A DNA stretch of 64,000 nucleotides, from assembly GCA_034421515.1 (NCBI GenBank), contig DAOUKH010000019.1:14794-78793 (forward strand). Direction: 5' to 3'. This document shows positions 7,885-62,349 of this stretch, piece by piece. A program made the position numbers and the translations under genes. The notes beneath the pieces are model-generated. The model saw nothing but the letters and a program-made list of their open reading frames with translations. It made no database searches and was not told where the DNA came from. Every line of letters starts with the position of its first letter. Positions within the stretch are counted from its first letter, which is position 1. The stretch is from Dehalococcoidia bacterium. GTDB lineage: Bacteria; Chloroflexota; Dehalococcoidia; SHYB01.

Positions 7885-9774
7885 TTGGAGACGTTTGCCG
7901 AATTACTGACCGCCTACATGGCCCGAACGGGCATCGGCGACGCCGAGTTGGCGCGCCGCATCCCGGTGAGCCGTCCGACCCTCATTCGATGGAAGGAGGG
8001 GGTGACGGCGCGGCCCCGCTACCGCGAAGACGTCGTCCGTTGCGCCGAGATCCTCCGGCTGACGGCGGAGGAGACCGACGAGATCCTGCTGGCGGCCGGA
8101 TTCTCGCCGGAGACGGTGCCGCCTCCGGGGGAGTCGCCGCCGACCGCTGAACCCGCGCCCAAGGCCGGCGCCACCCCGCGCCGGGCTCCGAGGCCATGGC
8201 GTCTCCGTGCTTTCGCGGTGGCGGTGCTTGCACTTGTTGCCGTAGGCGTCGTCGCTGTCACGTTCGGACTGCGGGACACCACGTTCTACCCCGCGGCGGT
8301 GGAAGGGGAGTCGCTGATCGTTACGGCGCCCTTCGTCAACTACACCGCGGGGGCACAGGGCTTCAATGTCGTCGGCCGTCTGCGGGCCGCGATCGACACC
8401 GAAATCCTTGAGGCGGGGCTCACCGCCGTCCGGACCGTCGAATGGCCCAAGGAGATAGACGGAGAGATGGCCGCCGAAGAGGCGAGCCGGAGGTCGAACG
8501 CGACGCTGGTGATCTGGGGCGAGTACGACAGCGGGCGCGTCATCGCGCGGTTCACCGGACCAACGGGCGGCTCCGAGCGCGACCGCCAGGTCGTGGACCT
8601 GACGTCCTCGCCCTCGGACCTCCCAACCACCATCAACGTTGGGCTGACCGGGGAGGTGCGCCACGTCGCCCTGCTCACTCTCGGGCAACTCTATCTGGAA
8701 CGGGACGAGTTCGATCGGGCGAAGAGCGTTTTTGTCCGAGCAATGGATCCCGCGACCTCGGATGCGGCAGCGCTGGCGAATCTCCGGTTCCAACTGGGAC
8801 GGGCCTACATGGGCGGGGAGTTTATCGACCTGGACGAGGCCATCTGGCTGTTCAACCAAGTCCTCAACGTCCAGCCGCAGTCGGTCGAGGTGCTCAACAA
8901 CCGCGCCGTCGCATTCCTGGACCGAGGCAGGCCAGGGGACTTCGATCTGGCGATTGACGATCTGCTGCGCGCAGCGAGCATTAAGCCCGACCGTGCCGCC
9001 ACGAGCCTCAACCTCGCCGTTGCGTACTTGGACCGCGGCGGGGAAGGAGATGCCGAGCGCGCCCTGGCCAGCCTCAACGCGGCACTGGCGGCGGAGCCGG
9101 ACTATGCCGCCGCCTTGGTCAACCGCGCCGGTGCCTATCTCGCGCGAGGGACGTCCGGCGACCTCGACCGGGCGTTCGACGACCTCGACCAGGCCCTGGA
9201 GATCGAACCGGATTTGGCCTCGGCGCATCTCAACCGGGCCATCGTCTACCTGGCCCGCGGCTCGACCGGCGATCTGGAACTGGCCGTTGTGGAGTTGGGG
9301 AGCGCCATTGCGCTGGACCCCGGCTCATCGGCGGCGTATTTCAATCGTGGCCTTGTCCATTCGGAGCTCAAGAACTGGAGCGAGTCGGTGGCCGACTTAC
9401 GCCGCGCCCAGGAGTTGAGTCCTCGCCGGCCGGAGTACAACGGAGCGCTGTGTCTGCAGTTGTCCGTGACTGGCGATCCGGCGGGGGCGCAGCCCTACTG
9501 CGAGCGGGCGGCGGAAGTCCAACCGGAAGGACTCGCCGGCGATGCCAGAGGTCTGGTCAATGCCCTCTTGGGCCGGACGGATGAGGCCATCGCCGACTTC
9601 GAAGCGTTCCTTGCCTGGGTGGAGGCTTCGCCGGACGATGCGTGCGGCCCCCGCTACAGCCCCACCCGGGCGTCGTGGGTCGAGGCTCTCAAAGCTGGCG
9701 AGAATCCGTTCGACGCAGCCACGCTGGAAGAGCTGCGTCCGAGGCCCGCGCTTCCCGGCGCCGTGCCCTGCTAG
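7885..9774 (+). CDS. membrane-anchored HTH (XRE-like) protein with TPR repeats
   Basis: TTG start. N-terminal HTH (TGIGDAELARRIPVSRPTLIRWKEG), a Pro-rich linker, one TM segment (AFAVAVLALVAVGVVAVTF), then about 8 TPR-like repeats (LNRA.AYL.RG...A..D...AL.L.P). Confidence 0.8.
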   Translation: METFAELLTAYMARTGIGDAELARRIPVSRPTLIRWKEGVTARPRYREDVVRCAEILRLTAEETDEILLAAGFSPETVPPPGESPPTAEPAPKAGATPRRAPRPWRLRAFAVAVLALVAVGVVAVTFGLRDTTFYPAAVEGESLIVTAPFVNYTAGAQGFNVVGRLRAAIDTEILEAGLTAVRTVEWPKEIDGEMAAEEASRRSNATLVIWGEYDSGRVIARFTGPTGGSERDRQVVDLTSSPSDLPTTINVGLTGEVRHVALLTLGQLYLERDEFDRAKSVFVRAMDPATSDAAALANLRFQLGRAYMGGEFIDLDEAIWLFNQVLNVQPQSVEVLNNRAVAFLDRGRPGDFDLAIDDLLRAASIKPDRAATSLNLAVAYLDRGGEGDAERALASLNAALAAEPDYAAALVNRAGAYLARGTSGDLDRAFDDLDQALEIEPDLASAHLNRAIVYLARGSTGDLELAVVELGSAIALDPGSSAAYFNRGLVHSELKNWSESVADLRRAQELSPRRPEYNGALCLQLSVTGDPAGAQPYCERAAEVQPEGLAGDARGLVNALLGRTDEAIADFEAFLAWVEASPDDACGPRYSPTRASWVEALKAGENPFDAATLEELRPRPALPGAVPC

Positions 9775-10202
9775 CGCGGGCTCGACCTGGACCGCAGCGC
9801 AGCGAGCCACAGCGCGTAGACGATGCCGATGGCCGGAATGGCCGCGAAGACGAGAGGGAGGCCCCAGTCGCCCTTGACGCTGCCTTGAGCGATCAGCACG
9901 GCGAAGACGAGGTCGGCGACTACCGTGGCGGCCAGGAGCGCCGCGACGGCTAAGGCTAGCGCCGCGGTGGGTCGAGCCGACACCGCTAACAGCACCAATG
10001 CGGCGGCGCTCAGCGGGTGAAGCAGGACAATCAGCACCCGCGACCAGACGTCGCCGCCGTCGGCGAATGCGCCCACCAGCGCGGTGAGCCCAGCGAAGCC
10101 TGCCTGGACTACGGCCAGCGCCAGCATCACCGTCCGGAAGGGCTTCATGCGCCGGGGCAGCGCGGCCGGCGCTGAGATCGGATGGTCTCCCGCGGCAGTC
10201 AT
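9771..10202 (-). CDS. small integral membrane protein, function unknown
   Basis: 143 aa with about four hydrophobic helices. A GAAGGGG ribosome-binding site precedes ATG 10202. Confidence 0.55.
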   Translation of the reverse strand: MTAAGDHPISAPAALPRRMKPFRTVMLALAVVQAGFAGLTALVGAFADGGDVWSRVLIVLLHPLSAAALVLLAVSARPTAALALAVAALLAATVVADLVFAVLIAQGSVKGDWGLPLVFAAIPAIGIVYALWLAALRSRSSPR

Positions 10203-10248
10203 CGCCCCTTCATCGTATCACCCGGGGGCTGGACGCGAGCGCGCTTGC

Positions 10249-11871
10249 CTAGTGCTCGCCCTTGGCGTCGAGGAGCATGAGGTCGAGCACGTCGCGGCTG
10301 GTGACCGTGCCCAAGAACGCGTTGCTCTCCCGGTCCACCACAGGGATGACCGTCAACGAGTGTTCCGTCATGCGCTGGAGCGCGTCCTCCAGGTGCTCGT
10401 CGGGATAGGCCTTCGGCAGGTCATGGATCATGACGTTCTCCAGTGGAGTTTGGGACCACTGGGTCTTGGGGAGGTAACGGAGCTTGCTGAGGGAGACGAT
10501 CCCCGCGAGGGCGCCGTGGTCGACGACGACGTAGTCCTGCTGATGGGGCACGGTCCAGCGGTCGGCGAAGCTTCGCACCGAGAGCGTCGACTCTGGGTAG
10601 TTCCACGACCGGTCCATGATGTCCTGGACGGTGGCGTCGTCGAGCGTGAAGCGGGCGAGGGAGGGCGGTATCGCCTCGGGCACGTCGCTCCTCTCCGGCG
10701 TCTTGGCCCGGTTGACGGCGAAGCTGATGAGGGGCGGCATAAACAAGATGTAGACGAACATGATCAGGACCAGCAGCGAGAAGACGGCCTGATCGATCAC
10801 GTGGGTTTCGAAGAGGACGAGGAGCAGGGCGATCTCGGCGACACCTTTCGCGAGCAGCCCCGTGGCCAGCGGGAAGGAGATGTCGAGCCGCGTCAAACTG
10901 GCCCCGATAAACGCGCCGACGAACTTCCCCGCAAGAGGGATCAAGACCAGCGCCACAATCGTCAAGGCGGGCAGCTCGGCAAACGCGAAGCTGAGGTGAA
11001 GGCCGGCAGAGGCGAAGAAGAGCGGGACGAAGAGACCTTCCGCCGTGCTCCGAATCCCCGGCATGACGGTTTGGCGCACCTGGTGAGGCAGCCCCGACAG
11101 TGCCGCGCCGAACAGCAGGGCTCCGATGGAGCCGTGCAGTCCGATCTCCTCGGCCCCTACCACAATCAGGAAGAGCCCGCCGAGTAGCAACCCGAAGGAG
11201 AGCTGGGGCACGCGCAGGACGCGCTGCAGGAGGAGCAGTATGCGCGGGACCACCCGCGTCGCCAGGAACCACGTCGCGACGGTGAACCCCACGATCTGCC
11301 CCAGGAGGACCAATACGCTGATTGCGCCCAGGTCCTCGGCGTGCTCGCCTATGGAGAAGCCCACGACGAGCAGGGCGAGCAGCTCGGCGATGATCACGGT
11401 GGTGAATAGCTGGATACCGAGCGGGTCCTTGAGGCGTCCCTCGTCGGCAAGCACCTTTGCCACGAGGCCAAGGCTCGATAGCGCCATGATTCCCGCCAGC
11501 GCCAACGCGTGATTGAAGTCGAGGTCGAGCCCGAAGTCGTGCAGGAGGTCGGAGGTGACGGCCAAGGCGGCAAGTAGCGAGATGACCACGGAGACGATCG
11601 CGGCGATGAAGAACCGGCCCCGCATCGCCGCCACGAACCCCGCAATGTCGATCTCGTCCAGGCCGATGAGGAAGAAGAAGACGAAGACGCCGATGCCCAG
11701 GAGGACATTGAGCTCGCTCGTCACCTCGACAAGTCCGGTGACCGGGCCGAGGATGACGCCGGTCACCGCGTAGGCGACGATCGCGTTCAGCTTGAATTGG
11801 CGAAAGACGCCCTCGGCGAGCTTTGCGACGACGATCAGCAGTCCTACGGAGAGCAGCGCCTCTTCGATCAT
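10249..11871 (-). CDS. cation:proton antiporter (CPA family) with C-terminal CBS pair
   Basis: 540 aa. The N-terminal roughly 380 aa are polytopic Na+/H+-exchanger-like. The C-terminus has CBS-type segments (VRSFADRW...VVVDHGALAGIVS; SLTVIPVVDRESNAFLGTVTSRDVL). Confidence 0.85.
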   Translation of the reverse strand: MIEEALLSVGLLIVVAKLAEGVFRQFKLNAIVAYAVTGVILGPVTGLVEVTSELNVLLGIGVFVFFFLIGLDEIDIAGFVAAMRGRFFIAAIVSVVISLLAALAVTSDLLHDFGLDLDFNHALALAGIMALSSLGLVAKVLADEGRLKDPLGIQLFTTVIIAELLALLVVGFSIGEHAEDLGAISVLVLLGQIVGFTVATWFLATRVVPRILLLLQRVLRVPQLSFGLLLGGLFLIVVGAEEIGLHGSIGALLFGAALSGLPHQVRQTVMPGIRSTAEGLFVPLFFASAGLHLSFAFAELPALTIVALVLIPLAGKFVGAFIGASLTRLDISFPLATGLLAKGVAEIALLLVLFETHVIDQAVFSLLVLIMFVYILFMPPLISFAVNRAKTPERSDVPEAIPPSLARFTLDDATVQDIMDRSWNYPESTLSVRSFADRWTVPHQQDYVVVDHGALAGIVSLSKLRYLPKTQWSQTPLENVMIHDLPKAYPDEHLEDALQRMTEHSLTVIPVVDRESNAFLGTVTSRDVLDLMLLDAKGEH

Positions 11872-12286: not shown

Positions 12287-12964
12287 ATGGCGATCTATCT
12301 GCACGAAACGGTCGACGTCGTGCCCGGTATGGCCGACGAGTACTTCGAGGGTCTGGGACGGCTCTGGCTGCCCGTGGCCGCGAAGCGCGACCTCCGTTGC
12401 GTCGGGTTCTGGGCCACCGTGGGCACCACGGGCCGCTGGCCGGAGGCGATCGCGCTCTGGGAGATGGAAGACTGGGAGCACTACGCCCGGCTGCGCAAGT
12501 CCCAGTTCGTCGAGGGGGAAAAGGACGAACGGCTTGAGGAGTGGGTCAACAGTGCGTGGAAGTGGCGAACCGGAGGCTTCGACCGCATGCTGATTCCTGG
12601 CGAAGGCTCGCCGACCATCGCGGATCTGCGCCGGGACGGCGTCAAGGGCGGTGTCTTCCTGCATGAGATCGTCGAGGTGGCCCCGGGCCGGGTCGACGAG
12701 TACACCGCCCAGGTCATCTCCCGCTATCGGCCCATCGCCGAACGTCGCGGCATGCGGCTCGTTGGATCGTGGCGCTCGGCCTTCCGCAACACGGAGGCGG
12801 TCAACATTTGGACACTGCGCGACTGGGACCATTGGACTGAGCTCCGTGGCACCGCCTCCACGGATGCTGAAGTCCAGGCATGGATGCGGGACATGCGGGA
12901 GCTGCGCTCGGACTGGGTGCAGAAGCTGCTCACCCCCGTTGCGTGGAACCCGCTGCGGGGCTAG
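12287..12964 (+). CDS. NIPSNAP family protein (two tandem NIPSNAP-like halves)
   Basis: The two halves start alike: MAIYLHETVDVVPGMADEYFE... and GGVFLHEIVEVAPGRVDEYTA.... Each ends in a W.L.DW..W motif, which is the NIPSNAP dimeric alpha-beta barrel pattern. Confidence 0.7.
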   Translation: MAIYLHETVDVVPGMADEYFEGLGRLWLPVAAKRDLRCVGFWATVGTTGRWPEAIALWEMEDWEHYARLRKSQFVEGEKDERLEEWVNSAWKWRTGGFDRMLIPGEGSPTIADLRRDGVKGGVFLHEIVEVAPGRVDEYTAQVISRYRPIAERRGMRLVGSWRSAFRNTEAVNIWTLRDWDHWTELRGTASTDAEVQAWMRDMRELRSDWVQKLLTPVAWNPLRG

Positions 12965-13009: not shown

Positions 13010-14008
13010 ATGACGCCGCTCGAAGCCGAACGCCACACGTTCTCCGATTACGACAGCCTGCTCGACACGTACTACGAGAGGGGCTGGACCGATGGGATGC
13101 CCGTCGTCCCACCGACGCCGGAGAAGGTCGAGGAGTTCCTTGGCGTCGCCGGCCTCGCGCCCAACGAGGTGCTGGGCCACGTCCCCACTCGCGAGGTGAC
13201 GTGCACGGCGGAGCAGGCGGCCATCAACGCCGTCATGGCCGGATGCAGGCCGGAGTATTTTCCCGTGGTCGTCGCCGCGGTCCGGGCCCATCTTGAAGAG
13301 AAGGGGAACTGTCACAGCACGACGGGGACGCTCTCCGGCGCCTCTCAGTGTCTGATCATCAACGGCCCCATTCAGAGGGAGCTCGGCGTGGCGTCTCAGG
13401 CGGGATGCTTCGGCCCCGGCTTTCGCGCCAACGCCACGATTGGACGCGCGCTGCGCCTCGTGATACGCAACGTCTGCCGGGCCATCCCCGGCTTCCTCGA
13501 CCGCGCCAGCTTCTCCACGCCGGCGCGCTACTCCTTCTGCTTCGGCGAGGACGAAGAGGAGAGCCCATGGACCCCGCTCCACGTGGAGCGGGGCTTTCCC
13601 GCCGAGAGCAGCACGGCCACCGTCCACTCCGTGGTGAACATGACGGTCGCCTCGGACTCCCGGAGCCGCGACCCCGAGGGGGTCATGGACAGCATCATCA
13701 AAGAAGCACGGCTGCGCGGCGCTGGCGGCGACCGTTGGCTCGGCGAAGAGCTCAACGTCGTGATCGTCGTTGGGCCGGAGCACCGGCGCTACTTCGCCGA
13801 GGCGGGCATGTCGAAGGCCAACATGCGCGACTATCTCTTTCCGCGCCTGACCGCGCCGTCCGGCGAGACCGGGCGGCGTCTCAGGATGGGCAAACCGGAG
13901 AATATTCTGATCGTGTCGGCGGGCGGACCGGGGATGGCGGAGTCGTGGATTCTGCTGCCGCACCTCGCCCTCGCCATCACCAAGCAAATCGAGACGCCGG
14001 GGAGGTAG
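13010..14008 (+). CDS. conserved hypothetical protein (332 aa) co-transcribed with the candidate selenoprotein
   Basis: Clean high-GC3 ORF. Its stop, TAG 14006-14008, lies 2 nt before the next ATG. Cys-containing segments are present (NAVMAGCRPEYFP, GNCHSTTGT, SQCLIINGP, AGCFGPG). I cannot name a family. Confidence 0.75.
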   Translation: MTPLEAERHTFSDYDSLLDTYYERGWTDGMPVVPPTPEKVEEFLGVAGLAPNEVLGHVPTREVTCTAEQAAINAVMAGCRPEYFPVVVAAVRAHLEEKGNCHSTTGTLSGASQCLIINGPIQRELGVASQAGCFGPGFRANATIGRALRLVIRNVCRAIPGFLDRASFSTPARYSFCFGEDEEESPWTPLHVERGFPAESSTATVHSVVNMTVASDSRSRDPEGVMDSIIKEARLRGAGGDRWLGEELNVVIVVGPEHRRYFAEAGMSKANMRDYLFPRLTAPSGETGRRLRMGKPENILIVSAGGPGMAESWILLPHLALAITKQIETPGR

Positions 14009-14010
14009 GC

Positions 14011-14571
14011 ATGGCAGACCACGAAATCGTCGCACTCGATCCCACCAGCGGCCCGCTCGACCGCAAGGACCCGCGAGCCTTCCCCGACCGGCCCGAGACG
14101 CTCAACGGCGCCGTCGTCGGCCTGGTCGCCAACGGGCTCGGCGAGGGACAGAAGATGATGGACGCGCTCTACGAGGAGCTGGCCAAGGAAGCCGAGGTCG
14201 TCGGCGCGGTCCGCGTGCTCAAACGCAGCGTCTCCATTCCGCCCGACCCGCCGGACTGGGACCGGCTGCTCTCGGAGGTGACCGTCGCCATCACCGGGAT
14301 GGGCGGCTGAGGCTCCTGCAGTGCGCGCAGTATGCGCGACGCGATTGAGCTCGAATGGGCCGGCATCCCCAGCGTGGCGATCATCCACGAGGCCCTGGCC
14401 GGGTCGGCGGACTCCATGAAGCGCCTCAGCGGGGTCAAGGACTACGACTACGTCCAGGTCAAATACCCGCACATTCCGACGGCGGTGTGGACCGACGAAG
14501 AGGCGCGGAGCATCGCGAAGGACCTCGCGCCGAAGGTGATGGCGGCCCTTACCAGGGCAAACGGCGACTAG
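14011..14571 (+). CDS. candidate selenoprotein with U-G-S-C motif (TGA 14308-14310 read as Sec)
   Basis: ATG 14011 follows GGGGAGG. The same frame continues across a single TGA into ORF 14332..14571, giving ...ITGMGG-U-GSCSARSMRDAIELEW.... A hairpin begins 13 nt downstream of the TGA. The total is 186 codons. Confidence 0.7.
14324..14338 (+). promoter_or_regulatory. candidate bacterial SECIS hairpin
   Basis: CGCGCA-GTA-TGCGCG (5-6 bp GC stem, G/U in the apical loop), 13 nt 3' of the in-frame TGA. Confidence 0.4.
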
Positions 14572-15268: not shown

Positions 15269-15397
15269 TAAAGGCCCCGGCAGCGGCCGCTCTTTCCGCG
15301 CTCGACACCCTCGGGGTCCTGCTCAAAGCCGGCTCCGGACATTCGCTGCCGTCCTAAAGATTAGGCTTGCGGAGGATCCTCCGGCCACCCACGCCGA

Positions 15398-16180
15398 CTA
15401 CACGTGCCAACGCGCTACGTACCCGCGCCGAACGGTGTCAAGGAACTTCAAGTACTCTTTGTCAACGTCGACGCCAAGGCTATTGGCTCTGTCGACTCGA
15501 GGCGGGTTCACATTGTCGATATGGACAGGGATGAGCAGCAAATAATCGAATCCTTCTTGATGAGTCAAATTGGGAGTCCGAGTGGGAAGACCTCGAAAGT
15601 GTTCGAGAGTCTTCTCAGCATCGTCGGCGCGATTCTCACTAACCGCGAGGGGGAAGTCGTCCCAAAGGGTTTCGTCTCCCGTCGCAAGACGCGGGAGGAC
15701 GCTCCGTTCAAACTCCCCTGGCCGGTTCCGGTAGACTTTTTTCACTTGGTCAGCCACGTTGAGGTATCGCCTGGCTGTGCCAATGAGAACAGTACCGAGA
15801 ACGATCGCCTCTCGCCTCCGCTGCTGCACCTCGGACCTGAAGTTGTCCAAGTCGCGGAACCGCTCCCCTTTGTTTCGATGGGCCGTCAGCACCGACTTGT
15901 TCTCCAAGCAAACGCGGACGCGACTCAAGTCTGGCGTATCCGCCGAGCCGTGTATCTCGCAAACGAGCAGATCTGCCCTGCGCTTCTGAAGGTCTGGCGC
16001 GGGTTGGTTCAACCACCAACCGACCTTCCCATGAGCATGATCGTCCCGGATTTCAGTGCATCGTGAGAGTAGATCCGACCAAATGCCCTTACAGAGGATA
16101 TCTGAGTGCTCGGCTTTTCGATGGTTGTGGTATCCGCGTTCACTAATCCGGCGGATGACATCATCGAAGGGCGTGTTCAA
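15398..16180 (-). CDS. putative type II restriction endonuclease (PD-(D/E)XK)
   Basis: 260 aa. The TTG start overlaps the methylase stop (TTGA). Candidate catalytic motif ...RADLLVCEIHG-x22-VCLENKS (D ... E-x-K). It lies in an AT-richer island. No family recognised. Confidence 0.6.
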   Translation of the reverse strand: MNTPFDDVIRRISERGYHNHRKAEHSDILCKGIWSDLLSRCTEIRDDHAHGKVGWWLNQPAPDLQKRRADLLVCEIHGSADTPDLSRVRVCLENKSVLTAHRNKGERFRDLDNFRSEVQQRRREAIVLGTVLIGTARRYLNVADQVKKVYRNRPGEFERSVLPRLATGDETLWDDFPLAVSENRADDAEKTLEHFRGLPTRTPNLTHQEGFDYLLLIPVHIDNVNPPRVDRANSLGVDVDKEYLKFLDTVRRGYVARWHV

Positions 16181-17655
16181 GCCACGAACTCCAAAATGGG
16201 CGCCATGGAGCCGGGGCGGCGCGCATTGAGCATTGGCTGTGGAGGATCCAGCATGTCCGTAACGAACCCGGAGGGTATCGGAAGACGCTTGAGGACGTTG
16301 CTCTGCGTGCGGATGAAACCATTAGCCGCTCGCTGACAGTTCTCGGTGAGCCACTCACGGGCGTGCTTACTGTTCAGGTACTCGCAGAGAGGTTCGAGCA
16401 TCGACGGGTTCCTGGGCACGATGTAGTAGGTGGAGTGGCGCGGCATCGTTGCACCGGACCTATCCAGCCAGAAGGCCGGTCTGCATGCAATGTCCTTACA
16501 GAGGATCTTAGGCCGTAGGATTTGCGGCATGCATGGAGTCTCGTGGAACGCATACCAAGGTTTTCGACTTGTGCACGTCCGCTTCAGCAGTTTCGCGGAG
16601 ACCCGCGGCTCCATCAAATACCGAGCAAAGCCCCCCAAGTTCTCCAGTGGTGTGAGTGTGCCGTCTAAGCCGTATGGCACCAGCATGATCGCGTGGGTTT
16701 CAATCCGGCCCTTAGCCATGTCCAGGTCTCGCCCCGAAACGGTTGGCCAGGCGAATTCATTGAGCCCCTCAGGCAATTCGTTTCGTTCGCGGACGAAAAC
16801 CTTGTCCGCGCCGGTCGCTACACCGCAACTGACGCGGTCGCAGACTGCGGAGAGGATGTCTGCCGTCCGGCCAGACTTTGAATCCGTCCCAGAGCCATTC
16901 ACGAAGGGCTGCCAACTCATGCCGCCCGGCGGGAGATAGGCGATCTTTTCGAGACCTCTGCGGTTCACGATCCGGGTAGCTCGTTTGCTCTTGGCCTTCT
17001 CCAGCACCGTAACCAGAGGATAGGTGACAAGGCTCCCAAATGTGTCCTCAGGAAGGAATTCGATCATTCGGACATCATGGGCGCTGAGCAACGCTCGGAG
17101 CGAAGCGGCGGAATCTACATAGGTATACTTCTCAGGAGTCACAAAAACGAGCCGGCCGCCTGGTTCAAGGATCTCTAAGGCCCGCTCGAAAAACAACATA
17201 TACAAATCAAACCGGCCGGTGGCAGTGCGGTAGTGGGCCTTATGCTCGGCCTTCTCTCGTTCGTTCAACTCAAGAATCGAGGCATAGGGGGGATTTCCGA
17301 TAACGTAATCATACGTTCCCCAGTGCCTGGCCTTCAGAAAATCCCCTTCGATTACACTGATCTGCTGATTGTTCCTGAAGTGGGACGCGGCTTCGGCAGC
17401 TAACTGCCCATCAAGCTCTACACCGGTTACCTCTGCAAGCTCTGACCGGCTTGCTAGAGACCAGCGCACGACCCCCTTTATGAAAGCGCCGGCGCCGCAA
17501 CCGGGGTCAAGAATGCGGTCGCCGTGACGAACATTCCTACCTTCAAACAGCAGTTCGACCATGTGGTCGACCAGCCTATCGGGTGTGGGTACGAAACCTC
17601 TCATTGGCCTCCGTCGCATGTCGCCTAGGCGGGTCGCATGTCGCCTAGGCGGCAT
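16177..17655 (-). CDS. N6-adenine DNA methyltransferase (Eco57I/TaqI-like, gamma class)
   Basis: SAM motif ILDPGCGAGAF followed by the catalytic VIGNPPY, then a long C-terminal target-recognition region. The start is ambiguous: ATG 17655, 17619 or 17604. The last one has a GGAGG immediately upstream. Confidence 0.85.
   Translation of the reverse strand: MPPRRHATRLGDMRRRPMRGFVPTPDRLVDHMVELLFEGRNVRHGDRILDPGCGAGAFIKGVVRWSLASRSELAEVTGVELDGQLAAEAASHFRNNQQISVIEGDFLKARHWGTYDYVIGNPPYASILELNEREKAEHKAHYRTATGRFDLYMLFFERALEILEPGGRLVFVTPEKYTYVDSAASLRALLSAHDVRMIEFLPEDTFGSLVTYPLVTVLEKAKSKRATRIVNRRGLEKIAYLPPGGMSWQPFVNGSGTDSKSGRTADILSAVCDRVSCGVATGADKVFVRERNELPEGLNEFAWPTVSGRDLDMAKGRIETHAIMLVPYGLDGTLTPLENLGGFARYLMEPRVSAKLLKRTCTSRKPWYAFHETPCMPQILRPKILCKDIACRPAFWLDRSGATMPRHSTYYIVPRNPSMLEPLCEYLNSKHAREWLTENCQRAANGFIRTQSNVLKRLPIPSGFVTDMLDPPQPMLNARRPGSMAPILEFVA
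17613..17652. repeat. perfect 2 x 20-bp tandem duplication
   Basis: GTCGCATGTCGCCTAGGCGG occurs twice back to back. Each copy contains CCTAGG and an ATG (reverse strand). Confidence 0.95.
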
Positions 17656-17766
17656 GATGGCGTGATAAGAATCGTGATAAGGATTAAACGGCGCGAGCGA
17701 AGCCTGGTCAAGTTGACCGTGTCGGGCGGGCTATGTGAGAATCTCCCGCCGGAGGAGGACCGTACT

Positions 17767-34695: not shown

Positions 34696-34971
34696 TCAGC
34701 GGTAGAGCTCCAGTTGGAATCGCACCGGCCCGGTGATCTCGACCCGGTGCGGCACTTCCGGCTCGGCGACGCCGGTCCGGTCCGGCGCCAGCTCGTGCTC
34801 CTCCACGTCCGGGCCAATAATGCAGTAGCGCAGCGAGCCCTCCAGCACTACGACCTTTGCCCACACCCCAGGCTTCGTCTCGTGCGATTCAAGCAAGTGG
34901 CCCGGCGCGGTCGTCTCCGTAAACTCCGGCGTCGCCGCGTAGCGCGACACGTTGTCGGGGATCGTCTTCAA
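34696..34971 (-). CDS. DUF1971 domain protein
   Basis: 91 aa, TTG start. ...TPEFTETTAPGHLLESHETKPGVWAKVVVLEGSLRY... matches the TehB-N-terminal-like DUF1971 pattern. Confidence 0.7.
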   Translation of the reverse strand: MKTIPDNVSRYAATPEFTETTAPGHLLESHETKPGVWAKVVVLEGSLRYCIIGPDVEEHELAPDRTGVAEPEVPHRVEITGPVRFQLELYR

Positions 34972-34984
34972 GATTCACCTACCG

Positions 34985-35311
34985 GTTGCCGCAATGTTGG
35001 ACTGCCGCCCCGCCTCTCCGCAAGAGGCCGGCCCGCGGAGCGGTCCCAGACCCTTCCCCTCTGGAGACCGTTGCACAACTCGTCGGCGCCGGCGGATCAT
35101 CCATGTAGGGGCAACCCTCGTGGTTGCCCAGGGGTGCGGGCGGGGTCTTCTCCCTTCCCCCGTAGGGGCGATTCACGAATCGCCCGTTCCCTATCCTCCG
35201 AACGGCCTTGTGGGGCTCGGCCAAGGTTACGCAAGGGTCTCCCCTCTGGGGGAGATTTGAGAGAGGGCGCGCGCCGTCAGGCGCGCGGGCGCCCGCAGGG
35301 CGCCGCTCTCC
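34985..35311. repeat. interspersed mosaic hairpin repeats, cluster R4
   Basis: 35094-35154 is near-identical to 27516-27576. 35238-35303 is the reverse complement of 51505-51571. GTAGGGGCGATTCACGAATCGCCC...GGTTACGCAAGGGTCTCCCC parallels 22628-22700. Confidence 0.85.
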
Positions 35312-36295
35312 CTACAGCAGACCCTGCTCCCTGTACCAGGCAGCGGCGCGTCTCGCGCCTTCTCCGAAGGAGACTTGCGGCTGCCAGCCGAGGTCGGCCT
35401 CGATGGCCTCGTTCGAGCAGATCCAGTACCGCTGCCGCATCTCGACCACCTTGTCGCGCGAGAGCGGAGTGGCCTTCCGCGTCACGGCGCCGAACGCCTC
35501 CGAGGCGAGCCCTGCCAGCCAGTAGGCCCACAAAGGTGTAGGCAACACCAGCGCCTTGCGTCCCATCGCCGCCTCGACGTGGGCCACGAGGTCGCGCCAG
35601 GTGTAGCGCCACCCATCGTCGGCGGTGTACGCCTTGCCGCCGACCGCGGCGCTCGACGTGGCGAGGTCGGCCGCTGCCCGAGCCGCGTCCTCGGCGTAGA
35701 TGATGGAGAGGGTGTTGCGCCCGCCGTAGAGCAGCGGCGCGAAGCGCAGCTTCACGAGTTTGAAGAAGGAGAGCAGGGCGAAGTCTTTGGGGCCGTAGAC
35801 CGCGGGCAGGCGGAGCATCACGGCGCGGTCGCCGAGCGGAGACCGCCGGACGAGGGCCTCCCCCTCGGCCTTGGCGCGCCCGTAGACGGAGACGGGCGCG
35901 AGGGCGGCGTCGAGCGGTCTCGGTACGCCGTCGGGGCTCGGCCCGTGCGCGGCGAGGCTGGAGACGTAAACGAAGCGCTTCAGACCGGGGACCTCGCGCT
36001 CGACGGCTGCGAGCAGGTTGCTGGTTCCCTGAGCGTTCACCTCCTGGAACTCGCGCGCCGACCGCGCCTTCACCAGCCCCGCGGCGTGGATGACGGCGTC
36101 GACCCCGCGCGCCGCCGGGCCCAGCGACGCGGCGTCGGTGAGGTCGCCCACGGCTTCCTCGAATGGGATGCCTTCGAGGAAACGGCGGCTGCTCGTGGTA
36201 CGGAGGAGGACGCGCACCTCGTGACCGCTGGCGGCAAGCTGCTCGGCGATGTGGGAGCCGACGAATCCGGTGGCGCCGGTGACGAGGACCTTCAT
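35312..36295 (-). CDS. NAD-dependent epimerase/dehydratase-family SDR reductase
   Basis: MKVLVTGATGFVGSHIAEQL (Rossmann TGxxGxxG) and a YxxxK-type catalytic segment (VYGRAK). It starts 1 nt after the upstream stop. Confidence 0.85.
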   Translation of the reverse strand: MKVLVTGATGFVGSHIAEQLAASGHEVRVLLRTTSSRRFLEGIPFEEAVGDLTDAASLGPAARGVDAVIHAAGLVKARSAREFQEVNAQGTSNLLAAVEREVPGLKRFVYVSSLAAHGPSPDGVPRPLDAALAPVSVYGRAKAEGEALVRRSPLGDRAVMLRLPAVYGPKDFALLSFFKLVKLRFAPLLYGGRNTLSIIYAEDAARAAADLATSSAAVGGKAYTADDGWRYTWRDLVAHVEAAMGRKALVLPTPLWAYWLAGLASEAFGAVTRKATPLSRDKVVEMRQRYWICSNEAIEADLGWQPQVSFGEGARRAAAWYREQGLL

Positions 36296-36296
36296 G

Positions 36297-37460
36297 CTAG
36301 GCGGCCCGCCCTTCCGTGAAGCCGATGTCCTTTTCGTAGATGCGGAACGTCTTGTAGTGCTCGCATTCCATCCGGCGGAGCACGGCGGTGATAGCGTGGT
36401 TGTCTTCGAGCGTCCAGGAAAGCTCGGTGTTCCGGTAGCCGCGGGCCGTCCCACGCCGGGTGATCTCGTCGATGAGCAGATAGGGCAGGCCGGCGAGGTC
36501 GCGGCTCCGGAATTCCTTGCCCACGCCCACCAGGAAGAGACGGCCGCTCTTGAGTCGGCGCACCTTGACGCGCCACAGCAGCTTCAAGAAGCCAAGGGGG
36601 AAGAGTCTGCCGCCGAGGTCGCGGATCGCCTCGTTGAGGTCGGGGACGCCCACGGCGATGCCGGCGGTCCGGCCGCCGACCTCGACGACGATGACCACCT
36701 TGGGATCGACGATGGGGCGCAGCGTGCTTGCCAGGTTGTCGGCCTCCGCGCCGGTCACGGGGACGAAGCCCCAGTTCTCCGACCACGCGTCGTTGAAGAC
36801 GTCGAGAATGGCGTGGATCTCTTGCCGGTACCGGCGCATGCGAATGGGACGGACTGTCACGTCGGGGCGAGCGCGCAGCCGCTCGACGCTGCGGGCGGCC
36901 CGTGGAGGCGGCCGCGTCCAGTCGAAGCGCCAAGCGTAAAGGTCCTTGGCCTTGCGGAAGCCCGCTCCTTCGAGCAGGTCGAGGTAGTAGGGATGGGTGT
37001 AGGGCGTCATGACGCGGGGCGGCGAGTCGAAGCCGTCGGCCAGCAGGCCGGCGATGCCGTTGATGGAGAAGCTCATCGGCCCACGGATGCGCTCCATCCC
37101 GCGTTCCGCCAGCCACGACTCTGCCGCGCCGAGGAGCGCGGCGGCGGCCTCGGGGTCGTTCTCGCATTCGAAGAAGCCGAAGAAGCCCGTCTTTTCCGCA
37201 TGGCGGTCGTTGTGTGCGGGGTCGATCTGCGCGGAGATGCGCCCTGCCGTCCGGCCGTCCTCCCGGTAGGCAAGGAAGAGCGCCGCCTCGGCCTGTTGCA
37301 GGAAGGGGTTGCGCTTGGGGTCGAGCTCGGCCCGCTCCATCAGCGCAAGGGGCGGCACCCAGTGGGGATTGCCTTCGTACAGGCGCCGCGGCGCGGCGAT
37401 GAACGCCTCCACGCCGCGGCCGGATACCGGCTCGACGCGGATGCGGCCCGTGGTCTCCAC
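36297..37460 (-). CDS. GNAT-fold N-acyltransferase-like protein
   Basis: GTG 37460 lies 11 nt after the upstream stop. The C-terminal half (...VVEVGGRTAGIAVGVPD...LFLVGVGKEFRSRD.AGL.YLLI...G...G....ELSWTLEDN...) resembles proteins I recall as annotated GNAT/N-acetyltransferase. This assignment comes from memory of that pattern. Confidence 0.6.
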   Translation of the reverse strand: METTGRIRVEPVSGRGVEAFIAAPRRLYEGNPHWVPPLALMERAELDPKRNPFLQQAEAALFLAYREDGRTAGRISAQIDPAHNDRHAEKTGFFGFFECENDPEAAAALLGAAESWLAERGMERIRGPMSFSINGIAGLLADGFDSPPRVMTPYTHPYYLDLLEGAGFRKAKDLYAWRFDWTRPPPRAARSVERLRARPDVTVRPIRMRRYRQEIHAILDVFNDAWSENWGFVPVTGAEADNLASTLRPIVDPKVVIVVEVGGRTAGIAVGVPDLNEAIRDLGGRLFPLGFLKLLWRVKVRRLKSGRLFLVGVGKEFRSRDLAGLPYLLIDEITRRGTARGYRNTELSWTLEDNHAITAVLRRMECEHYKTFRIYEKDIGFTEGRAA

Positions 37461-37471
37461 GCGGGCCGGGG

Positions 37472-38743
37472 CTAGATGAGCCCTCGGGCCTTGCCGACGG
37501 CTTTGAACTGTTCGAGCGCGTAGTCGATCTGCTCCGGCGTCTGCGTCGCCATGCAGCTGATGCGCAGCAGGGCGCGGCCCTTCGCGGCGGCCGGGAAGAC
37601 GACGGGGTTGGTGTAGACGCCGTGCTCGAGGAGCGCGTGCCACACGCGCACCGTCTCAACCTCGTCGCCGACGGGAACTGGAGCCACCAGCGACTCGGAG
37701 TCCGACACCTCGAAGCCCAGCCTCCTGAGGCCGGCGCGGAGTTGCTGCCCCAGGGCTCGAACGCGCTCGACGCGCTCCGGCTCGCTTTCAAGCACCTCCA
37801 GCGCCGCGAGGACCGCCGCCGTCGACGCGGGGGGCAGGCTCGCGCTGAACACCATCGGCCGCGCGAAGTGGCGCACCCAATCGACCACGGGCTGCTGCCC
37901 GGCGACGAAGCCGCCGATGGAGGCGAGCGACTTCGAGAAGGTGCCCACGATCAGGTCGACGTCGTCTTCGAGCCCGAAGTGGCTCCCCGTACCGCGCCCT
38001 CCCTCGCCGAGCACGCCGATGGCGTGGGCGTCGTCGACAAGCAGGCGCACGGCGTGCTCGCGGCAGGCCGCGACCACGCCGGGCAGATCGACGACGGCGC
38101 CGCTCATGCTATAGACGCCGTCGACGATGACGAGGGCGGGGCCGCCGTCGAGGCCCCGCAGGACCGTATCGAGGTGTCTTGCGTCGTTGTGGCGGAAGCG
38201 CAGCATCTTGCCGCCGGAGAGGCTGCACCCGTCGTAGATGCTGGCGTGATCGGCCTTGTCGACGACGGCGGCGGAGCCGGGCCCAACCAGCGCGGAGATT
38301 GCGCCGAGGTTCGCCTGGTAGCCGGTGGTGAAGACGAGGGCGGCTTCCTTGTTGAGGAACCGCGCGATGCGTTCCTCAAGCTGCTCGTGCAGGTCCATAG
38401 TGCCGTTCAGCACCCGCGAACCCGTCATCGATGTGCCGAAGCGCTGGATCGCCGCCGCCGCTGCTTCCATCACCTTGGGGTGGCGCGTGAGGCCGAGGTA
38501 GTTGTTTGAGCCCAGCATCAACACCCGCTTGCCGTAGATCACGGCCTCGGGCCCTTCATTGCGTTCCAGCGGCTGATAGAAGGGATAAGCCTGGGCCGCC
38601 TTCGCCTCCTGCGGCAGGGTGAAATCGAACGTCGGGGCGAAGATGTCCCGGTCTTGGACGCGTGTCGCGCGCCCCTGGATCAGGCGGTCGATGGAAAGGC
38701 CGTCGCCGCCGGAATCGCCGTTGTCGCTCTCGTGGGTGGACAT
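37472..38743 (-). CDS. alpha-oxoamine synthase family PLP enzyme (serine palmitoyltransferase / 8-amino-7-oxononanoate synthase-like)
   Basis: ...LGSNNYLGL..HP......A...FG....GSR.LNG....H..LE......., DDAH..GVLG..GRG, and GTFSKSLASIGGF (the PLP lysine). Confidence 0.85.
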   Translation of the reverse strand: MSTHESDNGDSGGDGLSIDRLIQGRATRVQDRDIFAPTFDFTLPQEAKAAQAYPFYQPLERNEGPEAVIYGKRVLMLGSNNYLGLTRHPKVMEAAAAAIQRFGTSMTGSRVLNGTMDLHEQLEERIARFLNKEAALVFTTGYQANLGAISALVGPGSAAVVDKADHASIYDGCSLSGGKMLRFRHNDARHLDTVLRGLDGGPALVIVDGVYSMSGAVVDLPGVVAACREHAVRLLVDDAHAIGVLGEGGRGTGSHFGLEDDVDLIVGTFSKSLASIGGFVAGQQPVVDWVRHFARPMVFSASLPPASTAAVLAALEVLESEPERVERVRALGQQLRAGLRRLGFEVSDSESLVAPVPVGDEVETVRVWHALLEHGVYTNPVVFPAAAKGRALLRISCMATQTPEQIDYALEQFKAVGKARGLI

Positions 38744-58001: not shown

Positions 58002-59783
58002 TTACTCGTCGAGCCAAACGTGGTCGAGGCGCGGCGCGTGGAGCCAGACGCCCTTCGGTGGGAAGAAGTTCTTCACCTTCGCCTGGGAGGGCCAGAAGCC
58101 CTGTCCCCACGCGATGGGGATTTGCCCAAGCGTCTCGAGCATGCGGCGCTGCATCTCGTAGACGATCTCGCGCCGCTTGTCGGGGTCTTGCTCGGCCCGC
58201 TGCTGGGCGTAGAGCTCGTTGGTGCGTTCGTCGACGTGGACGTTGGAGAAGGGCTGGACCGAGATGTTGTACGAGTTGGCGTCGGGGTCGATGTAGAGCA
58301 CCGACGATTCCACCGGGAACAGGTCGAAGTCGTTTGAGACCGCCCTGGGGACGAGCTCGGGGAACGGCAATGGCGACGACTTCACGCGGATGCCGACCTT
58401 GGCGAGCTGGTCGACGACGAAGACTTGCAGCTTCACTAGCCGCGCCACGGGTTCCACGGTGACGGCCTCGGTATCGAACCCGTCGGGGTAACCGGCCTCG
58501 GCAAGAAGCCGCATGGCTTCATCTATGTCCTGCTGCTTATCAGCGCCTTGGCGGTAGCCCGGCATGGCAAGCAGCTCCGCTTCGGGCAACTCCCATCCCG
58601 GTGCGAATGCGGGACCCGCGGGCCTGGTCACGTCGTCCAAGACTTCCAGAGCCTCGAACCGGTCGATGGCGAGGAAGATGGCGCGCCTCACGCGCACGTC
58701 GGTAAAGGGCTCGCGCTCGGTGTTGATGATGACGATCTTGGAGGACAGCCGGTCGTAGGGGTTCGGGCTGAGGTCGGGCACGTCGCCCTGGAGCTGGGCA
58801 AGCTGCACCTTATTGATGTCGGTGACGCCGGGGCCCAGCAGGTCCACCCTGCCGGTCCGGAAGGCCGCGATACGTGTCGCCTCGTCGCCGATCATGAGGT
58901 AACGGATGGCGTCCAGGTATGGCTTGCCTTCCAGGTAGTAGCCGTCGAAGCGGCTGAAGTCGACGGACTCGCCCCGGACGTACTCGCCCGCCAGGAACGG
59001 CCCGGTGCCCACGGTCGGCCCCTCCGAGATGTCGCCGGCGGCGGCCTCCCATACGTGCTGGGCGACGATCGGGGCCTGGATGATCCCAAGGACCGCCACT
59101 AGAGACGCTCTAGGGGCGTTCAGCGTGATCCGCAAGGTGTCGTCGCCGACCGTCTCAATAGCGGTCACCGACTCCAACTCCGGTATCATTCGCGGGTTTT
59201 CGTCCTTCAGGACCTGGACGCCAAACTGGGCGTCGCCGACGGTAAAGTCCTGACCATCGTGCCACTTGACGCCCTGCCGGATCTTGAACGTGTAGACCGT
59301 CGATCCGTCGCTGACTTCCCATCCGGTTGCCAGGTCGGGGACGACGTCTTCGAGCGGCTCCTGGAAGTTGTAGCGCACCAGTTGGCTATAGGACTGCCCC
59401 CACATGTGCAGGAGCTGGACGGAGGTGGCGCGGGCGACGTCGAGGTTCGGAGGATCACCCGATGAGGCGGCAATTAACGTTCCACCGTACTCGCCTTCGG
59501 GCAAGGACGGCGCCGCAGTGGGCTGGGGCATAGCGGTGGCTGCCGGCACCGCTGTCGGCGCGGGCGGGGGAGCCGGAGCATCGCCCCCGGCCGGCCCTTC
59601 GGGCCCTGCCGGTCCTGATGGGCCCGCCGGTCCTGACGGCCCTGCCGGCCCCGCCGGCCCTGCCGGTCCCGCCGGCCCCGGCGGTCCTGCCGGGCCCTCG
59701 CAGGCGGCGACGATAAGCGCAAGCACGGCCAGCGCGCCAATCAGGAGATACAGCTTCCGTAATCGAGACCGTTGGTTCGTCAT
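58002..59783 (-). CDS. ABC transporter substrate-binding lipoprotein (family 5), paralog with collagen-like N-terminal tract
   Basis: ATG 59783 lies 7 nt after GGAGGG. Lipobox ...LIVAAC followed by 12 G-X-Y triplets (GPA/GPP/GPS/GPE). Confidence 0.9.
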   Translation of the reverse strand: MTNQRSRLRKLYLLIGALAVLALIVAACEGPAGPPGPAGPAGPAGPAGPSGPAGPSGPAGPEGPAGGDAPAPPPAPTAVPAATAMPQPTAAPSLPEGEYGGTLIAASSGDPPNLDVARATSVQLLHMWGQSYSQLVRYNFQEPLEDVVPDLATGWEVSDGSTVYTFKIRQGVKWHDGQDFTVGDAQFGVQVLKDENPRMIPELESVTAIETVGDDTLRITLNAPRASLVAVLGIIQAPIVAQHVWEAAAGDISEGPTVGTGPFLAGEYVRGESVDFSRFDGYYLEGKPYLDAIRYLMIGDEATRIAAFRTGRVDLLGPGVTDINKVQLAQLQGDVPDLSPNPYDRLSSKIVIINTEREPFTDVRVRRAIFLAIDRFEALEVLDDVTRPAGPAFAPGWELPEAELLAMPGYRQGADKQQDIDEAMRLLAEAGYPDGFDTEAVTVEPVARLVKLQVFVVDQLAKVGIRVKSSPLPFPELVPRAVSNDFDLFPVESSVLYIDPDANSYNISVQPFSNVHVDERTNELYAQQRAEQDPDKRREIVYEMQRRMLETLGQIPIAWGQGFWPSQAKVKNFFPPKGVWLHAPRLDHVWLDE

Positions 59784-59826
59784 CACGGTTCCCTCCGTTT
59801 GATCGTGGTGGCGGCTCAGGCCGACG

Positions 59827-60978
59827 CTATGCTGGTGTGAATTTGAAGATCTTGGCTGCCGTCTCCGAGGTGATCTTGCGGCGTTCCTCGTCGGGGACGC
59901 CCTCGAAAATTCTGTCTAGGAACTGCATGGAGTGGGGCCAGGTGGACTCCGCGTGGGGGAAGTCGTTGCCCCAGAGCATGTTGTCCACGCCGATGATGTG
60001 GCGCATCTGGATGCCGGCGTCGTCTTCCATGAACTCCACGAAGAAGTTCTCGCGCCAGTAGTCGCTGGGCATGAACCCCTGCTTGGACCGCCAGCCCAGC
60101 TTGCGGCTCTGCGCCGGACGTTCCATGTAGATGAAGTCCATCTGCTTGAGCCAGTGGGGAATCCACGCGGTCTCGTGCTCGACGGAGCCGACCTTCAGCT
60201 TCGGGTAGCGGTCGAAGACGCCGGCGAAGATCATGCAGGTCATCGAGTACCTGACCCAGTAGTCGATGGTCGCGAAGCCGGCGGCGGTGAGATCGGAGGT
60301 GTCGATGGTGAGCTCGCAGCCCGGGATGCCGCCGCGATTGCTCCCGATGTGGAGCAGCAGCGGCATATCCAGGTCTTGGGCGGTCCACCACAGCTTCTCG
60401 TAGACGGGGTCGCGGTAGGGCCGTTCCCAGAGGGGCGACGACGGAATGAAGACGCCCACCAGCCCCATCTCGGCGCAGTGCTCCATCTCGGCGCAGGCCT
60501 CGTCGACATCGTCGACGTTGAGGACGCCGATGCCCTTGAGCCGGTCGGGGTAGGGCTCGCAGAACTCGGAGATCCAGTCGTTATAGGCGCGGCAGGTCGC
60601 GGTTATGATCTCGTGGTCGGTCAGCCGGTACCAGAAGAGGCCCTGACTTGGCTGAGGGCATGCCGCCCAGACCCCGTCCATCTCCAGCTCCTTGAGCATC
60701 TCGTGGGGGTCGTAGGCGGCCTTCCGCACGTCGTCCCAGAAGCCTAGAAAGTCGATCTTCTCGGGGTCTTCGAAGCGCTGGCCGGCCTTGACGAAGGTGC
60801 CCAACATCCCGGCCTCTTGGCCTTCGACGATCCAGACGTCGTACTCTTGGCCGCCCTTCGTCATGCGGCGCTCAACGCGCGGGGCCCGGTCCCTTAAGCC
60901 GGGCTCGAACCTAGAGGTGTAGAGGTCGGGAGGTTCGACGACGTGCGTATCAGCAGAAATAACCTTGTAATCACCCAT
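59827..60978 (-). CDS. amidohydrolase_2 family protein, paralog 3
   Basis: MGDYKVISADTHVVEPPDLY...; C-terminal ...LWGNDFPHAESTWP.... Confidence 0.85.
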   Translation of the reverse strand: MGDYKVISADTHVVEPPDLYTSRFEPGLRDRAPRVERRMTKGGQEYDVWIVEGQEAGMLGTFVKAGQRFEDPEKIDFLGFWDDVRKAAYDPHEMLKELEMDGVWAACPQPSQGLFWYRLTDHEIITATCRAYNDWISEFCEPYPDRLKGIGVLNVDDVDEACAEMEHCAEMGLVGVFIPSSPLWERPYRDPVYEKLWWTAQDLDMPLLLHIGSNRGGIPGCELTIDTSDLTAAGFATIDYWVRYSMTCMIFAGVFDRYPKLKVGSVEHETAWIPHWLKQMDFIYMERPAQSRKLGWRSKQGFMPSDYWRENFFVEFMEDDAGIQMRHIIGVDNMLWGNDFPHAESTWPHSMQFLDRIFEGVPDEERRKITSETAAKIFKFTPA

Positions 60979-61085
60979 GAAAAACCCCCCTCCTCAGCGC
61001 CCCGCTAAGTGGGGACGGTATAGCATTGCGCCTCTGGAATGTCAAGGATGCACTTCCGTTGCGTTCCCGCAATGTGCGACCGCAT

Positions 61086-61400
61086 TTAGTTATCTAATTC
61101 GACGTAGATCGTGTCTCCCCGAACCGTGGTCTCGTAGCGGGGAACGCCGGTCGTGAAGGGGCCGTCGATGAACGCGCCGGTCCGGACGTCGAACCTGGCG
61201 AAGTGGAGGGGGCACTCGACGATGGCGTCCTCCAGAAACCCTTGCGCCAGCGAGGCCCGGGCATGCGTGCAGGTGTCGCTGAGGATGTGGAAGGCGCCGT
61301 CGACGTTGGCCAGCAGCAGGCGCTCCCTATTGGCCACGACGAGCTTCATCTCGCCGGGCGGCACATCGGAAATCTTCGCGACCGGATATTCCTTCGCCAT
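61086..61400 (-). CDS. Rieske [2Fe-2S] ferredoxin-like protein
   Basis: 104 aa with CTH...x...CPLH (Rieske ligands). ATG at 61400. Confidence 0.8.
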   Translation of the reverse strand: MAKEYPVAKISDVPPGEMKLVVANRERLLLANVDGAFHILSDTCTHARASLAQGFLEDAIVECPLHFARFDVRTGAFIDGPFTTGVPRYETTVRGDTIYVELDN

Positions 61401-61422
61401 CGTCGTCGTGCTCGGGATACGG

Positions 61423-62331: not shown

Positions 62332-62349
62332 CGGTGCGTGGAGCTCCCG

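Follow-up and report, generated by a model that had tools for sequence, protein, structure and literature searches.

Proteins containing a U-G-S-C motif constitute a predicted selenoprotein family that has been known since 2007-2008 (Zhang & Gladyshev; PMC1976440, PMC2398784, PMC13188914). In the literature the family is described as abundant in environmental metagenomes and commoner in non-marine samples, and it ranks among the most abundant selenoprotein families in the GOS data, with 255 selenocysteine (Sec) forms versus 21 cysteine (Cys) forms. The RNA element of the present locus can be compared with the E. coli SECIS, the minimal form of which is a stem-loop of nucleotides 15-31 with G23/U24 in the apical loop and with U17 and G23 as the SelB binding sites (review PMC8659212).

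Here we describe a UGSC locus in a 64,000-nucleotide stretch of DNA, hereafter the window. Positions 14011-14571 very likely form one gene for a 186-residue UGSC selenoprotein, with Sec at TGA 14308 and a functional SECIS element, as judged from the comparative sequence evidence given below. Given the date of the first descriptions of the family, the window gene is no new kind of element, but a mis-annotated member of a known one. The locus comprises the following features:

13010..14008, plus strand: partner gene, 332 aa, which terminates at TAG 14006-14008 and is separated from the UGSC start by 2 nt
13999..14005, plus strand: Shine-Dalgarno-like sequence GGGGAGG, located within the 3′ end of the partner gene, 5 nt upstream of ATG 14011
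14011..14571, plus strand: candidate UGSC-family selenoprotein gene, 186 codons and the stop codon TAG 14569-14571, with Sec as codon 100
14308..14310, plus strand: UGA, probably read as selenocysteine (U100), which opens the U-G-S-C motif at 14308-14319
14321..14342, plus strand: SECIS-like hairpin, from the minimum-free-energy fold and conservation in relatives
14321-14323 with 14340-14342: lower stem of the hairpin, with a bulged A at 14339
14324-14329 with 14333-14338: upper stem of the hairpin, with the loop at 14330-14332 (GUA)
14332..14571, plus strand: 79-aa "gene" of ORF callers, in fact the C-terminal 79 residues of the candidate selenoprotein

Reading frame and homologues of the UGSC gene

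The initial annotation had proposed that one frame, with GGGGAGG before ATG 14011, is split by a TGA only, and direct reading of the sequence bears this out. The frame extends from ATG 14011 to TAG 14569-14571 with TGA 14308-14310 as its sole interruption, and the ORFs 13348..14310 and 14332..14571 lie in this same frame with that TGA alone between them. The read-through product is ...VAITGMGG-U-GSCSARSMRDAIELEWAGIP... as far as TAG 14569-14571 (the peptide around Sec is also given as ...VAITGMGG-U-GSCSARSMRDAIELEW...), with GG-U-GSCS as the motif surrounding the Sec residue, and its N-terminus matches that of an 89%-identical relative, L001 (MASNEIVALDPTSGP). The location of the Shine-Dalgarno-like sequence inside the end of the partner gene suggests translational coupling.

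As had been expected of ORF callers, the gene is split in the public records: NCBI, JGI and ENA store the halves as separate 99-aa and 79-aa proteins, which are called "hypothetical protein" where they are named and fall in clusters of 15 and 40 members. This annotation, which the gene callers share, is what would be seen if the TGA were a true stop, in which case a pseudogene or split gene would yield a truncated 99-aa protein, with or without a separate 79-aa protein translated from ATG 14332. The codon at the position of ATG 14332 is furthermore UUG, also a possible start codon, in 91 of 107 homologues, and no Sec machinery is seen in the window. However, ATG 14332 is the codon of an internal Met108, which covers the final nucleotide of the loop together with the two nucleotides that open the 3′ arm of the hairpin, and inspection of the window located no suitably placed Shine-Dalgarno-like sequence before it, in agreement with the earlier observation that no ribosome-binding site is positioned for a restart ahead of 14332. 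The closest purine-rich stretch upstream is UGAGG, which contains the Sec codon and is 19 nt away. The comparisons with homologues that follow also bear on this explanation.

For the family searches, Sec was replaced by Cys in the 186-aa protein. The protein matches the Pfam family PF24696 "UGSC" (Bitscore: 142.2; cut-off: 25) over residues 9-181 and profile positions 3-171 of 172, so that a search of protein-family HMMs, as had been suggested, returns a match that spans the TGA. The NCBI "UGSC family (seleno)protein" named in the initial annotation likewise exists, as the NCBIfam model NF041046, and is matched by the window protein (Bitscore: 96.4; e-value: 1.5e-27), but below its 125-bit equivalog cut-off, such that the named family is real while membership by this model does not hold. 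Nine other partner-linked homologues, namely eight metagenome Sec forms and the Cys form P0001, score 57-95 bits against NF041046, while a distant homologue, P0062, passes the cut-off (148 bits). With the window protein and the nine partner-linked homologues all below 125 bits, they represent a sister clade outside the NCBI equivalog model, and annotation pipelines may consequently fail to recognise the gene or to join its halves. A clade distinct from NF041046, with its records split into two "hypothetical" halves, may thus be new or under-reported, and a clade-specific model or a lower cut-off would fix many records at once.

A protein search covering 5.8 billion proteins returned two length classes. 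The full-length proteins, of about 180-200 aa, read GG-C-GSCS, while the short database entries end in ...TGFGG or start with MRDAIELEW, that is, right at the Sec codon, and are therefore the N- and C-terminal halves of one protein. When 30 full-length homologues are aligned, all of them have Cys in the column of the TGA, and conservation continues downstream of it, as orthologs of a selenoprotein had been predicted to show; C100, G101, S102, C103 and S104 (C-G-S-C-S) are invariant in these Cys homologues. That both halves are one domain in full-length Cys proteins speaks against a true stop. In P0052, a 115-aa database entry, the UGSC N-terminus is followed directly by the C-terminal tail; some 70 residues from the middle, the Sec site among them, are missing, and the entry looks like an artefactual gene model.

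Sec forms were retrieved from a metagenome collection with the DNA pattern G-G-TGA-G-S-C-S-x-R-x-[MLV]-R-D, which is found in at least 120 stretches. About 117 of these are UGSC homologues in which the sequence is conserved both before and after the TGA; the three exceptions among the 120 listed are one chance match, one distant relative and one apparent chimera. A scan of reference genomes with the corresponding peptide pattern containing Cys gave 43 loci, Cys forms only, which are derived nearly all from Acidimicrobiia or other Actinomycetota MAGs. As they encode the same peptide, these Cys forms can serve as a control set for the RNA element discussed below.

Between the window and L001, the 75 codons compared past the UGA contain 18 nucleotide differences, distributed over the codon positions as [2, 0, 16], which amount to 14 synonymous and 4 nonsynonymous codon changes. 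Across 107 Sec forms, third positions downstream of the TGA similarly vary while the amino acids are conserved. These patterns show that protein-level selection acts downstream of the UGA. Two further public assemblies of this sequence have the TGA as well. One of them (L168) was assembled independently, from another sequencing run, and shows 100% identity across 3,657 nt, the gene and its TGA included; the same in-frame TGA is present in L001 and L002 when fetched as DNA. An error of sequencing or assembly, by which TGA would stand for TGC or TGT in an ordinary Cys form, involves a single base, and Cys forms do exist in Acidimicrobiia; its likelihood is nevertheless negligible, as the TGA recurs in both further assemblies, in L001 and in the approximately 117 metagenome contigs, and as the window carries Sec-specific codons (CGC-AGU-AUG-CGC) that are rare in Cys forms. 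A true stop is likewise very improbable: the TGA is retained in more than 100 diverged homologues, in which the two halves are conserved and share a frame, the downstream divergence is biased to third positions, and the Sec forms possess an invariant, covarying hairpin, absent in Cys forms, for which a plain stop would have no need. Taken together, the third-position-biased divergence, the conserved flanks and the identical independent assembly make it unlikely that the TGA is a plain stop or a sequencing error, or that the gene is a pseudogene.

The hairpin downstream of the UGA and the decoding of the UGA

The hairpin on which the initial annotation had based its suggestion of a bacterial SECIS could be verified. 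The sequence CGCGCA-GUA-UGCGCG at 14324-14338 begins 13 nt past the UGA and carries G and U in its apical loop, which are nucleotides 23 and 24 when the U of the UGA is counted as nucleotide 1. Compared to dinucleotide shuffles, the folding energy of the window hairpin is not significant (z = -0.44 and -0.82; 67% G+C), and with the energy so unremarkable in a sequence of 67% G+C, a single sequence cannot show that the hairpin matters. Rfam gave no SECIS match, whether at the gathering threshold or, for positions 14250-14420, at E ≤ 10; the coverage of bacterial SECIS elements in Rfam is reported to be poor (2026 preprint).

A comparison was made between 107 distinct Sec forms, whose retrieval pattern had left the synonymous sites free, and 39 Cys forms. 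In the Sec forms, the Arg codon (nucleotides 19-21) is CGC in 107/107 and the Ser codon (22-24) is AGU in 107/107, while the codon following AGU is NUG in all 107 (UUG in 91). The Cys forms are mixed at both sites, with CGG (23), CGC (13), CGA and CGU encoding Arg, and AGC (20), UCG (11), UCC and AGU encoding Ser (n = 39). As such, the 6-bp stem (17-22 with 26-31) can be formed by 107/107 Sec forms as against 4/39 Cys forms, and the G23-U24-N25 loop is present in 107/107 as against 2/39. The window carries the full Sec-specific codon set, CGC-AGU-AUG-CGC. Loop position 25 is U in 91 of the 107 Sec forms, by way of the UUG Leu codon, while the subclade of the window has A at this position (AUG, Met), which suggests that the loop sequence preference reaches past G23-U24.

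Pair 18:30 (G14325/C14337 in the window) is the sole variable pair of the stem and occurs as G-C (77 sequences), C-G (26) or A-U (4), without a single unpaired case among the 107. Both nucleotides are third codon positions, of an Ala codon (Ser or Thr in a few sequences) and an Arg codon, respectively. None of 100,000 permutations matches this level of pairing, and the state of the pair switches in at least five independent protein backgrounds (11 switches on a rough tree built from the flanks). Mean identity among the Sec forms is 93% in the hairpin versus 75% in the flanks. By a pair-counting tool, 95.5% of the cells are paired, versus 90.7 ± 0.5 in shuffles, and the covariation score of 0.136 (0.052 in shuffles) is reached by 0/500 shuffles, while sliding the register lowers the pairing to 15-71%. 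The hairpin is a conserved, covarying RNA element specific to Sec forms. This Sec-specific conservation, the covarying pair 18:30 and the invariant GU loop (107/107) favour the bacterial SECIS that had been proposed from the window sequence alone. A Sec-specific SECIS with an E. coli-like G23/U24 and covariation at synonymous sites may be new or under-reported, and its conservation offers clear mutational targets (G23, U24 and pair 18:30), with the natural Cys forms as controls.

The genes selA, selB and selD and the tRNA-Sec gene were not found in the 64-kb window, and searches with E. coli SelA, SelB and SelD (tblastn) and for tRNA-Sec (ARAGORN) found none in the window and the fetched loci, 1.03 Mb in all; the tblastn search includes five genes at 58.0-63.3 kb (58002-63306) that lie outside the Pfam scan of the window. 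In so small a sample, with the window itself part of a 94.6-kb contig, the absence of the Sec machinery is expected and is uninformative either way. In other systems, read-through of a stop codon can be stimulated by a stable hairpin located after it, and with the Sec machinery genes unseen within the window, the UGA might also be decoded without Sec, through near-cognate suppression by Trp or Cys or a lineage-wide reassignment, the hairpin acting as a generic stimulator. We consider this improbable on several grounds. TGA 14308 is the sole in-frame TGA with a coding signal on both sides in the window, so that UGA is not generally reassigned; the codon replaces the redox-active Cys of a CxxC-type motif, a classic Sec/Cys exchange; G and U never vary at the two loop positions through which the E. 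coli SECIS contacts SelB; and UGSC is an established predicted selenoprotein family. Complete Sec machinery has furthermore been reported in Actinomarinales, an order of Acidimicrobiia (2026 preprint), which, coming from a different organism, adds plausibility only. The named best matches of the partner protein and the taxonomy of the Cys-form loci suggest Acidimicrobiia as the probable lineage of the window. Sec insertion at TGA 14308 remains the preferred reading, and "candidate" selenoprotein, as the gene was first termed, is appropriate wording.

The partner gene and its neighbourhood

The 332-aa partner encoded upstream of the UGSC gene has no Pfam or NCBIfam family match, and no match recurred when 39 partner homologues were scanned permissively against Pfam. 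A profile search of the PDB with the partner sequence returned no relative. Its structure model is good (pTM 0.88), and Foldseek found no meaningful fold match for it, the best being a class I fumarate hydratase (TM 0.28). The partner family is nevertheless large, with at least 7,985 homologous clusters at 90% identity, among which the top matches are 63-92% identical, and the homologues are named "hypothetical protein" only. Conserved motifs of the family are GWTDGLPVVPPT, AGCRPEY, STTGT, GFRANATIGRA and YSxCxGExEE. Three Cys residues are invariant in the partners of the window's clade, which had prompted a Fe-S hydro-lyase-like role for the protein; this candidate role was dropped, since only two Cys residues, C79 (AGCRPEY) and C177 (YSxCxGExEE), are conserved across both clades, the classic one included, and the structural matches are too weak.

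Linkage of the two genes is extensive. Among the Sec-form loci with a partner match, the partner is located directly upstream of UGSC in 93/96, and of the 23 Sec-form loci lacking such a match, 22 have 267 nt or less on that side, L069 alone having room for the gene. The partner adjoins UGSC in 39/40 Cys-form loci, usually on the downstream side (37/40). Gene order accordingly tracks the Sec/Cys state (Cys loci L004-L046 versus Sec loci L047-L166). In the classic UGSC clade, represented by P0062, UGSC is followed after 2 nt by a partner homologue of 41% identity, and in L082 the UGSC domain is the in-frame continuation of a partner-type domain.

The apparent L082 fusion is found on the minus strand at about 10,100-11,200 and contains a distant Sec form (GG-U-GSCTSSS), while stop codons or frame changes break the upstream part of its partner-type domain; the fusion may be the one described as "UGSC/Unknown_1 fusion" in PMC2398784. 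In L001, the partner (8680-9677) is called as two ORFs of 207 and 124 aa that overlap at 9303, which is probably a frameshift error of the long-read assembly.

On the strength of this gene linkage, it is conceivable, with perhaps somewhat less than an even chance, that UGSC and its partner make up a two-protein redox enzyme in which UGSC would be the Sec-carrying subunit. More tentatively, we propose that they are the two subunits of a widespread selenoenzyme, the small, flavodoxin-like one of which would carry the redox-active Sec-x-x-Cys, while the large one would bind the substrate and exchange a selenenylsulfide/disulfide with UGSC. If this is true, one of the most abundant environmental selenoprotein families belongs to an enzyme system without a described counterpart. 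A near-obligate partner family without a matching solved fold may itself be new or under-reported, and a partner so regularly present, and sometimes fused, provides a defined two-protein system for co-expression.

A third gene consistently linked to the UGSC-partner pair was not found in 80 loci. Short-chain dehydrogenases (29/80 loci) and family III CoA-transferases (15/80) occur around the pair, both of which are common paralogous families. A NIPSNAP-domain gene just upstream of the pair in the window (12287-12964) is common to close relatives only (L001, L065, L167 and L168) and is as such outside the conserved module.

Additional features can be observed elsewhere in the window. Downstream of the UGSC gene, at 15278-17701, there is a 2,424-nt insertion of 57% G+C, versus 67-68% in its flanks, which encodes an Eco57I/N6-type DNA methyltransferase (16177-17655, minus strand) and a 260-aa ORF without a family (15398-16180, minus strand). 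Contig L167, which is 98-99% identical elsewhere, has only 20 nt in place of the insertion, and the insertion is probably a strain-variable mobile restriction-modification module. No ORF passed the coding filter at about 34.8-36.3 kb (34817-36297), and the ORFs at 36297-37643 (minus strand) and 37622-38509 (plus strand) have no Pfam match.

Predicted fold, proposed mechanism and comparison with known systems

An AlphaFold2 model was obtained for P0001, a natural Cys homologue that is 60% identical to the window protein (pLDDT 91.6; pTM 0.85). The model consists of five alternating beta/alpha units, in which Cys98, the equivalent of U100, is positioned one residue before helix 99-114. A Foldseek comparison of this model against the PDB listed 50 matches, none of which is a thioredoxin-fold protein; the neighbours are flavodoxin-like but weak (TM ≤ 0.49), and a profile sequence search of the PDB with UGSC found nothing. 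A likely Trx-like fold has been suggested for UGSC (PMC2398784), which is unsupported here, given that no thioredoxin fold is among the 50 matches listed. The model instead predicts that the UGSC fold is flavodoxin-like rather than thioredoxin-like, and such a predicted fold may be new or under-reported.

The strand-to-helix turn, at the N-terminus of a helix, is the usual site of a redox-active pair. In the mechanism that we propose, translation would start at ATG 14011 from a strong ribosome-binding site that overlaps the 3′ end of the partner gene. The hairpin at 14321-14342 would act as a bacterial SECIS at UGA 14308, its apical G23-U24 loop recruiting SelB with Sec-tRNA(Sec), and Sec would be inserted at the UGA, with translation running on to TAG 14569. 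The product would be a flavodoxin-like alpha/beta domain that presents U100-G-S-C103 in the turn between a beta-strand and a helix N-terminus. From the position of the motif, the U100/C103 pair may cycle between the selenol/thiol and selenenylsulfide states, and, as the gene linkage suggests, UGSC could work with the upstream 332-aa partner as the redox-active subunit of a two-protein enzyme.

With the described UGSC family, the window protein shares the U/C-G-S-C motif, the Sec/Cys column, a bacterial-type SECIS after the UGA and a length of about 150-200 aa. Relative to the family as modelled by NF041046, the clade of the window differs in scoring 57-96 bits against the 125-bit cut-off.

A likeness can also be drawn to small redox selenoproteins with a UxxC or CxxU motif, namely the thioredoxin-, glutaredoxin- and SelW-like proteins and the glycine reductase selenoprotein A, in which Sec and Cys are similarly two residues apart; the location of the motif at a helix N-terminus and the existence of natural Cys-for-Sec variants are further shared. 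They differ in that no sequence or structural similarity to UGSC was detected by the profile PDB search or Foldseek, and in that the UGSC partner resembles no known reductase subunit. The arrangement of a small Sec-carrying subunit beside a larger partner may nevertheless liken UGSC to GrdA.

The RNA element resembles the E. coli fdhF SECIS in being a stem-loop within the coding sequence, just 3′ of the UGA, and in carrying G23/U24 in its apical loop, the UGSC stem 17-22/26-31 comparing with an apical stem-loop of about 15-31 in fdhF. The UGSC element differs from its E. coli counterpart in lacking the bulged U17, position 17 being an invariant paired C, and in having a loop of just three nucleotides, G-U-N, the last of which (position 25) shows a strong preference for U, while in most UGSC sequences a lower stem is possible, in which A32 is bulged out of the 3′ strand.
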